A DNA stretch of 8,378 bases from a virus (Duplodnaviria > Heunggongvirae > Uroviricota > Caudoviricetes), in the IMG/VR virus record IMGVR_UViG_2703718799_000022; one strand, written 5' to 3'. A program made the translations under genes and the position numbers. Positions within the stretch are counted from its first letter, which is position 1. Every line of letters starts with the position of its first letter. Below are positions 2,362-8,378 of the stretch, piece by piece. The notes under the pieces are model-generated. The model did not search any database. It worked only from the letters and a program-made list of their open reading frames with translations, and was not told the DNA's origin.

Positions 2362-2429
2362 GTCAACATATCCTGAATCAGACATACAATATCGCAATGA
2401 AAATCAATAATATTTTAAGGAATATCTTC

Positions 2430-2663
2430 ATGAAATCAAAAGACACCCTAAAGTGGTTCCCTGCGCAGCTTCCTGAAGTAAGAATTATCCTAGGGGATGC
2501 TGTAGTGGAAGTAGCAAAACAGGGAAGACCTATCAATACCAGAACATTGCTTGATTACATTGAAGGAAACATAAAGAAAAAATCATGGCTGGATAACAAA
2601 GAATTATTACAAACAGCGATATCAGTTCTTAAAGACAACCAAAATTTAAATGGTAAAATGTAA
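2430..2663 (+). CDS. Hypothetical 77-aa protein of unknown function
   Basis: The track ORF 2397-2663 has no RBS at ATG 2397. The in-frame ATG at 2430 is preceded by AAGGA (2417-2421) with an 8-nt spacer. No family recognised from the sequence (MKSKDTLKWFPAQLPEVRIILGDAVVEVAKQGRPINTRTLLDYIEGNIKKKSWLDNKELLQTAISVLKDNQNLNGKM). Confidence 0.5.
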   Translation: MKSKDTLKWFPAQLPEVRIILGDAVVEVAKQGRPINTRTLLDYIEGNIKKKSWLDNKELLQTAISVLKDNQNLNGKM

Positions 2664-2979: not shown

Positions 2980-3570
2980 ATGTCTCGAATTTTTGCTTAC
3001 TGTCGGATATCAACGCTGGATCAGACCATCGAAAATCAACGCCGGGAAATCGAAAGTGCAGGTTTTAAAATCAAACCTCAGCAAATAATCGAAGAACACA
3101 TTAGCGGCTCAGCAGCAACCAGTGAGCGTCCTGGTTTTAACCGGTTGCTTGCTCGCCTGAAATGTGGTGATCAATTGATTGTGACAAAACTGGATCGCCT
3201 TGGTTGTAATGCAATGGATATCAGGAAAACAGTGGAACAACTGACCGAAACAGGTATCAGAGTGCATTGCTTAGCATTGGGGGGCATTGACCTGACCAGT
3301 CCAACAGGAAAAATGATGATGCACGTAATTTCAGCAGTCGCTGAATTTGAACGAGACCTTTTACTTGAACGCACTCATTCCGGGATAGTAAGAGCCCGCG
3401 GCGCAGGGAAACGTTTTGGTCGACCACCTGTGTTAAATGAAGAACAGAAACAGGTGGTATTCGAACGAATTAAGTCAGGTGTAAGTATAAGTGCCATTGC
3501 CCGGGAATTCAAAACCTCGCGGCAAACCATTTTAAGAGCCAAAGCAAAACTTCAGACACCTGACATATAA
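2980..3570 (+). CDS. pin: Serine DNA invertase of the Pin/Hin/Gin/Cin family
   Basis: 196-aa ORF with the N-terminal resolvase catalytic motif '[11 protein letters not shown]' (active-site Ser) and a C-terminal helix-turn-helix '[17 protein letters not shown]'. Near-identical, as far as I recall, to E. coli prophage Pin proteins (PinR/PinE). Located next to tfa as in Rac and e14. Confidence 0.93.
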
Positions 3571-3667: not shown

Positions 3668-4243
3668 CTACGGCAGTGCTGGCCATTCAATATCCTGTGC
3701 AGTTGACGTATCAACACGGTTCAGCAACACCCGATACTTTTTCCAGGCTTCCAGCAATGAGGTTTCTTCCTCCGTTGCGATTTCCAGATCTACAGCATCC
3801 TGAAGTGGCGCAATATGCTCACTGGCTACCTGCATCAGGCTGTTTTTTGTTTCTTCCGCCTCTCGGATCCGGAACAGTTTTTCTGCTTCTGCATCTTTCA
3901 CCCAGGCTGTGCCGTTCCACTTCTGAAACTCCCCTTCCGGCGATAACCAGGTAACATTTTCCGGTAACGGACCGAGTTCAGAAATAAATAACGCGTCCCC
4001 TGACGCTACGTCATAAACCGTTTTACCCCGATGGTCTTCAACGAGATGCCACGATGCCTTATCACTGTTGAAAACAGCCACAAAGCCAGCAGGAATATCT
4101 GGTGGTGCAATATCGGTACTGTTTGCTGGCAGACCTGTATGAGGCGGAATATATGCGTCACCTTCACCAATAAATTCATTAGTTCCGGCCAGCAGATTAT
4201 AAATTTTTATGGTCCGTGGTTGTTCACTCATTCTGAATGCCAT
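3668..4243 (-). CDS. tfa: Tail fibre assembly protein (chaperone for Stf)
   Basis: 191-aa ORF starting [24 protein letters not shown]..., matching lambda Tfa as I recall it. The start ATG (4243-4241) overlaps the stf stop TAA (4245-4243) in the sequence TAATG. Confidence 0.93.
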
Positions 4244-7002
4244 TATGCAAGCCTCACAATATAGTTAAATGCGATGTTTTTGACGGTGTTTTCCGCGTTA
4301 CCAGCAGCGTTAACGGTGATGGTGTGTCCATGTGAACCAATCGCAACGGAGTGCGTATGAGCACCAATACCGACAGTATGCGCGTGTGCACCTGCAGATG
4401 CTGCTGTGCCGGACAGTGAATGGCTATGATTACCATCTGTACTGGTATTCGCTAACCACCCCGTAGACATACCTACTGAGCCTTGTACACCCCAGGTATT
4501 TTGACCTGAGCTTGTATAACCATATTGATAAGTATCTTTAAAAACACTGGGGTTAAATCGACGGCCATCTCTATGGCTGTGATTACCAGCTGCATTCGTG
4601 CTGCCACTTAAACTATGGGTATGCGCACCAGTGTTATTCGTGGATTTAGTGCCGTAATCAAACGACGATGTGGTTTTCGTCCCCAAATCCGTACTGGATG
4701 CGCTGGCGCTGTGGGTATGCGATTTAATGCCGTCCTGTTCCTGAGACAATACGGCCCGACCACTGGCAGGTTTGCCCTTAATCGTCCAGCCACGCATATC
4801 AGGGATCACGCCTGACGGATAAGCCGCTGCAAGTTTCGGGTATGCAGATTTGTCAAAAGCCTGCCCCTGCATCAGGGCATAGCCAGACGAATAAATATCG
4901 TAAGTATCACCAGATGTATTAACCCAGGCAAAATTTGTAAACCCTGTCAATGTGCGCTGCCATAAAGCACCAGTAATCCCCTTCGGATTACCATTACCTG
5001 CACGTAAAACAAGTTCAGATATACCTGCCTGTTGAGGTGACCCCACGTTAAATCCAGCGCCACCAATCAACGTAATTGAAACAACAGAACTCGCCTGTGG
5101 CATGGTTACCGTTGCTAATTTGAACCAACCAGCACCACCGCTGAATGACATTGTTGTTGAGTTAAGCGTACCAATATCTTTCGGCGTCAGTGTTATATCC
5201 GCTGAAAGCGCCTTACCATTCACCTTACGGGCAGAAGGTACCCGACCATTCGCATTGTCATTAGCTGCTTTCACTGCTTTCGGTGTCGCAGCAAGCGTTT
5301 CAGATGTGCTGTTGGTTGCACTACTGAGCTGGACAATTCCTTTTTGTGCTGTCGTAGCGTCCTGTGCGGTGTATTTCCCGTTAGCCAGGTCATACGCGGC
5401 CTTAACGGCTTTTGGCGTTGCCGCCTGTGACTCGGAAGTGCTGTTAGTCGCACTGCTGAGCTGAACTATCCCTTTCTGTCCTGTCGTTGCATCCTGTGCG
5501 GTGTATTTCCCGTTAGCCAGGTCATACGCGGCCTTAACGGCTTTTGGCGTTGCCGCCTGTGACTCGGAAGTGCTGTTGGTCGCACTGCTGAGCTGTACTC
5601 CCCCCTTTTTCGTCGTGCTCGCATCCTCAAGCGCCACGGCGGATGCAATATCCTCTGCACGTTTTGCCGCTGTCTCAGCGCGCGTTGCTGCGGATTCTGC
5701 CGTACTTTTGCTCTGTGCTGCCGCTGCCGCACTGCCAGCAGCCTCTGTCGCCTTCGTGGATGCCGTCGTGGCGCTGCCCCTCGCTGCTGACGCCTGTCTG
5801 GTCGCCTCATCTTTTGAAGCAGACGCAGATGATGCCGATGACGCCGCCGAACTGGCGGACGATGCGGCAGCCGTTTTTGAGGATTCTGCGCTGGTTTCCG
5901 ACGCTTTCGCGTTCGTTTCGGATGTCTTCGCTGCGGAAGCAGACCTCGCTGCTGCGCTGGCCTGTTCAGTGGCTTCGCCAGCCTTCGTTGTGGCTGTTGA
6001 AGCGGATGATGCGGCGCTTTCTGCCGATTTTCCGGCGGCGGTGGCACTGACTGCTGCCTCCTCTGCCTTAATGGACGCCTCACGGGCCGATGATGCAGCT
6101 GCTGTCTCAGAGTCTGCCGCAGCTGAGGCGCTCTGTTCCGCTGCCGTTTCAGAAGACTTAGCATTCGTCTCGGACGTTTTTGCCGCCTTCACGGAATTTC
6201 CTGCCGCCATTGCCGAGGAGGCTGCACTGCTGGCGCTTGTGGAGGCGTTCGTTTCTGATGATTTTGCCGCCTCTTTGGAGGCCGCCGCATCTCTGGCTGA
6301 AGTGGCGGCTTCTGACGCTTTCGTCGTCGCAGTGGATGCAGAAGTGGCTGCTGATTTTTGTGACGCTGCAGCATTCGTTTCTGACGTTTTCGCGGCACCG
6401 GCACTGGTGGCCGCCGCGCTTTTTGAGGACTCTGCAGCGGCAGCACTTTTTGATGCTTCTGTGGCCTTTGTTGATGCTGTTCCTGCGCTGGAAGACGCTG
6501 ACTGAGCCGACGTCGCGGCCTGCCCGGCTGATGTGCTGGCTGCACGTGCTGAGCCTGCAGCATCAGTCGCATGGGTTGCCGCCTCACGGGCTGATGTGCC
6601 GGCATCGCCGGCTGACTTCTTCGCGGCTGCCGTGTTCTGTGCCACCGCGGACGCGTTACGCGCCACCTCTTCCACCATCAGCTCAAAACGGCGCAGTGCC
6701 TCCGGACGGGCATCATCCTCCGTCATGGCACCGAGAAAATCATTCAGCGTACCGGGTCGGGAATCTTCATACACGGTGATGGTCCCGGCATGTGACGGCG
6801 GGAATCCTTCCACCAACAGAATAACGCTGTACTGACCGTACTCAACGTCCATACTGTAACGCCCGGCTTCATCCGGATTTTCTGAGGCCAGCGTGTTCAC
6901 CACCACCGTGGTGCTGTTACGTTTTGCTTTCAGCTGGATTGTGCAGTTCTGTACCGGTTTTCCTGTGCCGTCTTTCAGTACACCTGAAATCTTTACTGCC
7001 AT
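4243..7002 (-). CDS. stf: Side tail fibre protein (lambda Stf-like), apparently intact
   Basis: Track ORF 4243-7008 begins at a GTG; the ATG two codons in (7002-7000) gives [26 protein letters not shown]..., the lambda Stf N-terminus as I recall it. Long Ala/Ser/Thr-rich shaft, three tandem 44-aa repeats, His-rich HxH motifs near the C-terminus, and the C-terminal '[18 protein letters not shown]' typical of Stf and T4 gp37-type fibres. Confidence 0.93.
5240..5606 (-). repeat. Tandem direct repeat, 132-bp period, about three copies, inside stf
   Basis: 'ctgagctg' recurs at 5324, 5456 and 5588 (spacing exactly 132). Copies 5341-5463 and 5473-5595 are nearly identical at DNA level; the third (lowest-coordinate) copy is more diverged. 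Encodes the 44-aa unit '[44 protein letters not shown]'. Confidence 0.85.
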
Positions 7003-7011
7003 ATTCACCCC

Positions 7012-7040
7012 ACAAAAAAGCCCGCCTGAACCGGCGGGCT
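7012..7040 (-). terminator. Rho-independent terminator downstream of lom, immediately upstream of the stf start
   Basis: Minus-strand sequence agcccgcc-ggttca-ggcgggct forms an 8-bp GC-rich stem with a 6-nt loop, followed by ttttttgtgg. About 10 nt separate the T-tract from the stf ATG. Confidence 0.7.
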
Positions 7041-7066
7041 GTCATAACACTGTGTTACCTGGCTAA

Positions 7067-7666
7067 TCAGAATTTATAACCGACACCCACGATGAAACTG
7101 TTGGTACGCCAGTCACCGCTGCCGGAGCCTTCATAAGCGACGTCAACGGCCACGGATTCGGTCGGGTTAAACTGCACGCCAGCTCCCCACGCCAGAGACG
7201 TGTTGCTGTGGCGACCGTCATCACTTCCGGTCAGCACATCGTGCGTTTTCCCCTTGTTGTCAGTTACGCGGATATAATCTCCGGAGAAAGTCGAAACACG
7301 GCTGTAAGCCATACCCGCCATCGCATACGCGCTGAACCATTCATTCACGCGCACAGACGGCCCCGCCATCACGCTGAACCAGCGGTTACGCACGGAATCT
7401 TCATGCCAGCGGGTATCGCTGTAATGCGTTTTTTGCTCATCTTCAGCGTTGGCATAACTGAATGACGTAATCAGCCCCAGCGTGTCCGTAAACTCATAAC
7501 GGTATTTCACGTTAATCCCGTTCAGATTATCGCTGCCGGGAGCGTTCGTACGGGCATGAAGATACCCTGCGCTCAGTGTGGCCTGCTGCTCAGACGCCCA
7601 TGCAGGCGCACCGGATACGGCCAGACAGATGGCTGCGGACAAAATGGCTGCACAAACTTTACGCAT
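7067..7666 (-). CDS. lom: Outer membrane beta-barrel protein Lom (Ail/Lom/PagC family)
   Basis: 199-aa [29 protein letters not shown]... with a signal peptide and the C-terminal 'FIVGVGYKF' beta-barrel end; matches lambda Lom as I recall it. GAGAGG lies 6 nt upstream of the ATG. Sits between J and stf as in lambda. Confidence 0.95.
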
Positions 7667-7690
7667 AATTACCTCTCGCTTTTCTGCAAT

Positions 7691-7720
7691 AAAAAAGGCG
7701 TCATTCCTGACGCCCTTTAT
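7691..7720 (-). terminator. Rho-independent terminator between J and lom
   Basis: Inverted repeat ggcgtca-ttcc-tgacgcc (7-bp stem, 4-nt loop). On the minus strand it is followed by ttttttattg; on the plus strand by ctttattgg, so it may act in both directions. Confidence 0.7.
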
Positions 7721-7736
7721 TGGGGTTATAAATATT

Positions 7737-8378
7737 TCAACGAATACTGATGCCGGAAGCAGCTTTTTTGGTCACAATCACCGTACAATCGGTGATATTG
7801 CCTGCCCCCTGATTGCCTTTCTGGAAAATCTTAAACTCCAGAGTGACGCTACCACCACCACTAGGCATATCAATAACTGCACTGTAACTACCGGGAATGG
7901 CCCCTTTAGTTTCTCTGGATGCGATTAATACGCCGTTTTTGCGAACTTCAAAACCATAACCCGTGTATCGCGTGCCTCCTGGGTTATTTCCGCTCCCCGG
8001 ATCGTCATACGCTATACCGTTAAAAATAATGGGCGGAATAATAATCTGGCGGTCAAAGTTATGATCATCGCTGATGGTGACTGTAACCGTACCGTTTGGT
8101 GTTTCCGTGTTACCCCACGTACCGACTTTTTTCGGGAAGGCTTTTGATACAGCTTTAACGAAATCCCCTCTGACCTGGGTCGCCTCCAGCATGCCCTTAA
8201 TCGTACAGTTCTGGTTAATCGTGACATTGTTGAGCGTTCCTGAGTTCGCATTCACACTGCCACTGATATCCGCATTTTTAGCGGTCAGCTTTCCGTCTGA
8301 TGTCAGGGAAAATACCGGAGGACTGCCACCGCTGGTAATGGTGGGGGCCGTCAGGCGCTTCAGGAACACGTCGTTCAT
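7737..8378 (-). CDS. J: Tail tip host-specificity protein J, C-terminal ~213 aa only (5' part of the gene lies beyond the window end)
   Basis: Synteny J-lom-stf-tfa as in lambda. The motif 'LTAKNADISGSVNANSGTL.NVTI..NCTI.G' and terminal '...KKAASGISIR' resemble the lambda J C-terminal region as I recall it. The ORF reaches the window edge, so it is partial. Confidence 0.8.
   Translation of the reverse strand: MNDVFLKRLTAPTITSGGSPPVFSLTSDGKLTAKNADISGSVNANSGTLNNVTINQNCTIKGMLEATQVRGDFVKAVSKAFPKKVGTWGNTETPNGTVTVTISDDHNFDRQIIIPPIIFNGIAYDDPGSGNNPGGTRYTGYGFEVRKNGVLIASRETKGAIPGSYSAVIDMPSGGGSVTLEFKIFQKGNQGAGNITDCTVIVTKKAASGISIR

Follow-up and report, generated by a model that had tools for sequence, protein, structure and literature searches.

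The window examined here (the whole 8,378-nt stretch of phage DNA that was analyzed) ends within gene J, which encodes the tail tip or central tail fiber, and the sequence of this J fragment identifies its distal part as the host-range allele of phage 434 (h434). Based on the evidence outlined below, we propose that the fragment belongs to a lambda-family J tip carrying the 434 allele, that this tip would use the porin OmpC rather than LamB, and that engagement of the porin would drive opening of the tail tip; we put the probability of this reading at roughly 0.85. The outer-membrane protein that a lambda-like phage requires is set by the J tip, which hence determines the strains that a prophage, including Shiga toxin phages with such a tail, can reach.

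The 3' end of J occupies positions 7737-8378 on the minus strand. According to the list of open reading frames, it comprises the last 213 codons of the gene (codons 925-1137) and the stop codon; the 5' part lies beyond the edge of the window, and the first codon, right at that edge, is the internal Met925 of J proteins. Both peptides quoted in the first-pass annotation of this DNA are present in the translation. Read against lambda J (NC_001416; protein NP_040600), the fragment opens with a conserved stretch (8242-8378, minus strand; codons 925 to about 970) in which nucleotide identity is about 93% and residues 1-50 match lambda residues 925-974 at 46 of 50 positions (92%) in a pairwise alignment. 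This stretch is part of the shaft, a trimeric beta-prism that stands above the receptor-binding domain; the domain names are those of the paper on the lambda structure (PMC11101478). Similarity to lambda then decays across a mosaic junction (8199-8241, minus strand; codons about 971-985), which was placed from the mismatch positions in a pairwise DNA alignment: identity is 140/150 over 8378-8229, 22/30 over 8228-8199, and about 45% over the remainder to the stop codon, so that it drops from 93% to about 45% across 8241-8199. Beyond the junction lies the Ig-like C-terminal receptor-binding domain of the 434 type (7743-8150, minus strand; fragment residues 77-212; Pfam PF12421).

The first-pass annotation had described a lambda-like upstream part followed by a divergent C terminus at 7737-8200, and both halves of that description hold. 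In pairwise alignments, the last 130 residues are identical to lambda J at only 44 of 129 positions (34%), with several indels, and extending the comparison to the last 150 residues, over which high identity to lambda had been named as the observation that would argue against divergence, raises the figure only to 37% (55/149). What needs correction is the boundary: the first clustered mismatches to lambda start at 8241, some 40 nt further upstream in the gene than position 8200. The position of the junction agrees with residue 964 of lambda gpJ, described as the "last stretch of identity" and used as the fusion point for engineered gpJ chimeras (PMC11338833). The divergence is not noise, given that the same region is 98 to 100% identical to the J proteins of other phages and matches the family of J receptor-binding domains.

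When 50,697 phage records were searched in translation, 261 gave a match, 74 of them at 90% identity or more and 186 below 60%. Over the 213 residues, identity was 100% to mEp460_ev081, 98.1% to phage 434, and 97.7% to the hybrid lambda h434 imm21; many Stx-converting and ECOR-derived phages were also among the matches. Direct alignment likewise gave 213/213 to the J protein of mEp460_ev081 and 209/213 to residues 925-1137 of phage 434 J, with 126 of the last 130 residues identical to the latter. The four differences from 434 are N1019 (D in 434), I1108 (V), Q1110 (H), and G1115 (R). The likeness to phage 434 (GenBank OL657226) extends to the same junction with lambda-like sequence and the same downstream terminator, and the 3' end of J, lom, and the start of the side tail fiber gene stf (6653-8378) share 95% nucleotide identity with that phage; the side tail fiber past its start and the rest of the downstream region differ, as do the four J residues. 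Escherichia phage mEp460_ev081 (LR597641) matches most of the window, from J to xis, at 95 to 97% nucleotide identity in the same gene order, and its side tail fiber gene differs in repeat content. A literature search for receptor data on mEp460 and related phages gave only genome-annotation mentions. The 464-nt divergent segment is found in 2,106 of 5,426 complete Escherichia coli genomes (about 39%), and related alleles are spread over many E. coli lineages. The allele is long known and extremely common, and there is nothing new about the J tip itself; the first-pass annotation missed this point, along with the fact that a receptor can be named for such an allele.

Divergent as it is from lambda, this part of the protein is still a J receptor-binding domain. 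The Pfam family Ig_GpJ_C (PF12421) matches fragment residues 77-212 with an E value of 3.4e-26 (92.4 bits, against a cutoff of 26.2) and covers profile positions 1-134 of 135. In the PDB, the sequence matched lambda J (E 1e-53) and the construct A8 gpJ 713 (E 7e-63), both over residues 1-212. For structure prediction, the homologues obtained with the divergent part by itself were nearly all 434-type fragments and assembly chimeras, and a search that included the conserved shaft brought in the other J types used for the alignment. The resulting AlphaFold2 model, a monomer for which 26 aligned J tips served as input, is all beta and has a mean pLDDT of 75.6; block means are about 73 to 95 over the domain, and the first 20 residues are poorly modeled. 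The top four Foldseek hits are all gpJ tips (9wca, 8xcj, 8xck, and 9wcb; E 1e-16 to 1e-19), with a target-normalized TM score of 0.71 to 9wcb_F. These structures comprise free and LamB-bound lambda gpJ713 as well as free and OmpC-bound A8 gpJ713, and A8 gpJ is the best PDB match both by sequence and by fold. Across the J types, the alignment resolves into an invariant framework and four hypervariable stretches at about residues 83-95, 120-142, 154-165, and 183-196. Four receptor-contacting loops have been described for lambda, in a paper whose text gives no residue ranges for them (PMC11101478), and the four hypervariable stretches may correspond to these loops. Comparison with lambda J (PDB 8iyk, 8xck, and 8xcj) reveals a common family, domain order, and fold, a shaft segment that is 92% identical, and conserved framework residues within the receptor-binding domain, whereas that domain as a whole is only 34% identical, with indels in the variable stretches. 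The conserved J shaft precedes the domain, which lies in a tail gene block of the order J-lom-stf-tfa: lom, stf, and tfa follow downstream in the window, and in a chromosome with 100% identity to the window, further tail genes are found upstream. By analogy with the lambda and A8 structures, the domain would form a trimer at the tail tip.

Which receptor would such a tip recognize? Hantke (1978) and Fuerst and Bingham (1978) are reportedly the primary sources for the use of OmpC by 434 and h434. The C terminus of gpJ sets host specificity, and lambda whose J gene has been replaced by that of 434 binds OmpC, which 434 itself also uses as its receptor (PMC3509688; PMC11101478). With a domain that is 98% identical to that of 434, OmpC has the best support as a receptor, and we infer that OmpC, not LamB, is the likely receptor of this tip. 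The suggestion in the first-pass annotation that a replaced C terminus points to a different outer-membrane receptor is therefore supported, in that the replaced segment matches, at 209 of 213 residues, an allele whose J gives OmpC use. One could argue that the tip still uses LamB in spite of its divergence. The fold and framework residues that it has in common with lambda J would fit such an idea, as would the example of phage 21, which uses LamB and whose J is reportedly 94% nucleotide identical to that of lambda (PMC11336670). However, a receptor-binding domain with so little identity to that of lambda and with indels in its variable stretches, together with the OmpC use that a 98%-identical 434 J confers once placed in lambda, makes continued LamB use the least probable of the alternatives that we considered, and a very remote one.

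It should be emphasized that the type of domain alone is no predictor of the receptor, given that the tip is 39% identical to the OmpC-binding A8 tip and 34% identical to the LamB-binding lambda tip. A8 gpJ is a natural prophage variant (PDB 9wca, closed; 9wcb, with OmpC) that has been shown by experiment to bind OmpC (PMC11338833), and it is identical to the tip described here at 50 of 129 positions over the last 129 residues. On these alignments, A8 is a separate tip type rather than the same allele, and the tip in the window belongs to neither the lambda type nor the A8 type. We also considered whether the tip is the same allele as another OmpC-binding variant, 1A2, and rejected this possibility: the C terminus of 1A2, taken from the machine-read supplement of the paper and containing some letter errors, is clearly of a different sequence type. 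The J proteins of 1A2, phi330, and Gifsy-1 are also of the lambda family with swapped C-terminal domains, and each has been shown experimentally to need OmpC. For phi330, 434, and lambda, the reported pairwise identities of the receptor-binding domains are 35 to 40%, and in its C-terminal region, Gifsy-1 J reportedly shares just 18% identity with lambda J. Several unrelated-looking J tips (A8, 1A2, phi330, and Gifsy-1) all use OmpC.

Could the four substitutions relative to 434 shift the specificity of the tip, either to other OmpC alleles, such as the ones carried by O26 and further STEC hosts instead of the K-12 allele, or to an added or replacement porin such as OmpF? Some observations would be consistent with this idea. 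Three of the four differences (J1108, J1110, and J1115) sit in one variable stretch, and among 30 cluster representatives of the 434 type, polymorphism recurs at the same few positions (J1004, 1008, 1009, 1019, 1049, 1099, 1108, 1110, and 1115); the substituted residues, J1019 included, lie in variable and probably receptor-facing stretches. There are also precedents elsewhere in the family, in that single J substitutions add OmpC use in phage 21 (PMC11336670) and the A8 and 1A2 gpJ proteins accept different OmpC alleles (PMC11338833). Nonetheless, the substitutions are small in number and for the most part conservative (I/V, Q/H, and N/D), the identical tip occurs in an isolated phage, mEp460_ev081, related alleles occur across many E. 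coli lineages, and no data point to a receptor switch within the 434 type. We therefore regard a shift in specificity as unlikely, and retuning of the tip by the residues at J1019, J1108, J1110, and J1115 toward certain OmpC alleles or a further porin is, to our minds, a long shot. Were it true, sub-variants of the 434 type would set different host ranges among STEC prophages. As a side observation, the nine polymorphic positions of 434-type tips fall within fragment residues 80-191 (about 7806-8141 in the window), and at one of them, the G1099 common to the window allele and 434 is R in 24 of the 30 representatives.

Returning to the 434-type, OmpC-using tip as the preferred reading, we can posit a mechanism by analogy with the opening described for lambda and LamB (PMC11101478). 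In this model, three J chains would form the central tail fiber, and the C-terminal Ig-like domains at its distal end would offer their variable loops to a trimeric outer-membrane porin, which, given the near-identity to phage 434, would be OmpC. The trimeric tip would place its loops into the mouth of the porin, and the three domains would move apart at the bottom; this spreading would twist the shaft above and flip the helical bundle, and the consequent release of the fibronectin-like domains would open the tail tip for DNA ejection. We infer this opening mechanism from related tips, and the solved complex of A8 gpJ with OmpC in the open state indicates that the same scheme could apply to an OmpC-binding tip. 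Possible uses of such a reading include the prediction of receptors for STEC prophages and the choice of gpJ modules for engineered lambda particles.

An alternative is that the J gene is a relic of a defective prophage and no longer serves adsorption; the window holds no more than the 3' end of the gene, the STEC chromosomes in which the region lies are rich in prophages, and IS600 interrupts the matched region in some strains. However, the J frame is open to its normal stop codon, an E. coli chromosome with 100% identity to the whole window has an intact, annotated J of 1,137 amino acids preceded by a complete tail and head gene set, and a phage genome record (mEp460_ev081) encodes the same protein end without a difference. 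Based on these findings, we consider a relic improbable, and a working tail tip remains the preferred interpretation.

The whole window is 100% identical to E. coli O26 and other STEC chromosomes, and it carries integrase and excisionase genes on the plus strand. Read along the minus strand, the order is J, lom, stf, tfa, recombinase, a ydfK-like ORF, int, and xis, which is the vegetative (attP-containing) order. In E. coli O26 chromosomes (NZ_CP074921, 1-48579), the window is nevertheless contiguous, flanked on one side by early and lysis genes and on the other by genes for the tail, head, and terminase. The combination of a vegetative gene order with contiguity in chromosomes that have phage genes on both sides suggests a tandem arrangement, and the window likely spans the point where two lambdoid prophages, integrated in tandem at a Qin-type site, meet.

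The exchange relative to lambda is not confined to J. The lom gene (7067-7666, minus strand), which encodes an Ail/Lom outer-membrane beta-barrel (Pfam Ail_Lom, E 1e-125), is also of the 434 type; its product is 43% amino acid identical to lambda Lom, and DNA identity to lambda does not rise again until about 7126-7007, where the 3' end of lom gives way to the start of stf. Judged from these comparisons, the segment swapped relative to lambda is the J tip plus lom, and lom and the J tip move together as a single exchanged unit. Such a 434 host-range module in an E. coli O26-type prophage is textbook modular exchange, an instance of lambdoid mosaicism that opens no new question. Between J and lom lies a stem-loop with T-runs (7691-7720, minus strand), built on the hairpin GGCGTCA/TGACGCC at 7697-7714; the scan called this hairpin on the plus strand only, and on the J (minus) strand, TTTTTT comes next. 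We consider the stem-loop a probable intrinsic terminator after J, and phage 434 has a terminator annotated at the equivalent place. A second stem-loop with T-runs follows lom at 7019-7040.

The remaining neighbors were assigned from the ORF list and Pfam. The tail fiber assembly gene tfa (3668-4243, minus strand) is adjoined by a gene for a Pin-like serine recombinase (2980-3570, plus strand), an arrangement that raises the possibility of an invertible tail fiber segment. We rejected this possibility: a scan of the window gave no convincing flanking inverted repeats of at least 18 nt around the recombinase gene, and the crossover site of the e14 P segment is absent beside it. The recombinase may instead be an orphan invertase that acts elsewhere, as reported for PinQ. 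Further along, an 88-amino-acid ORF (2397-2663, plus strand) is without a Pfam match; in the matching chromosomes, RefSeq annotates the gene overlapping this ORF as the cold shock protein YdfK and places a small gene of the YnaM/YnfT family just upstream. The side tail fiber gene stf (4243-7008, minus strand) encodes 921 amino acids, with an Ala/Ser-rich low-complexity middle and a His-rich C terminus, and contains three 132-nt tandem repeats at 5246-5641 (Pfam Phage_fiber_2). In some chromosomes, the match to the whole window is about 200 nt longer, and the annotated stf measures 2,961 nt, compared with 2,766 nt here; this difference in length suggests variation in repeat number.
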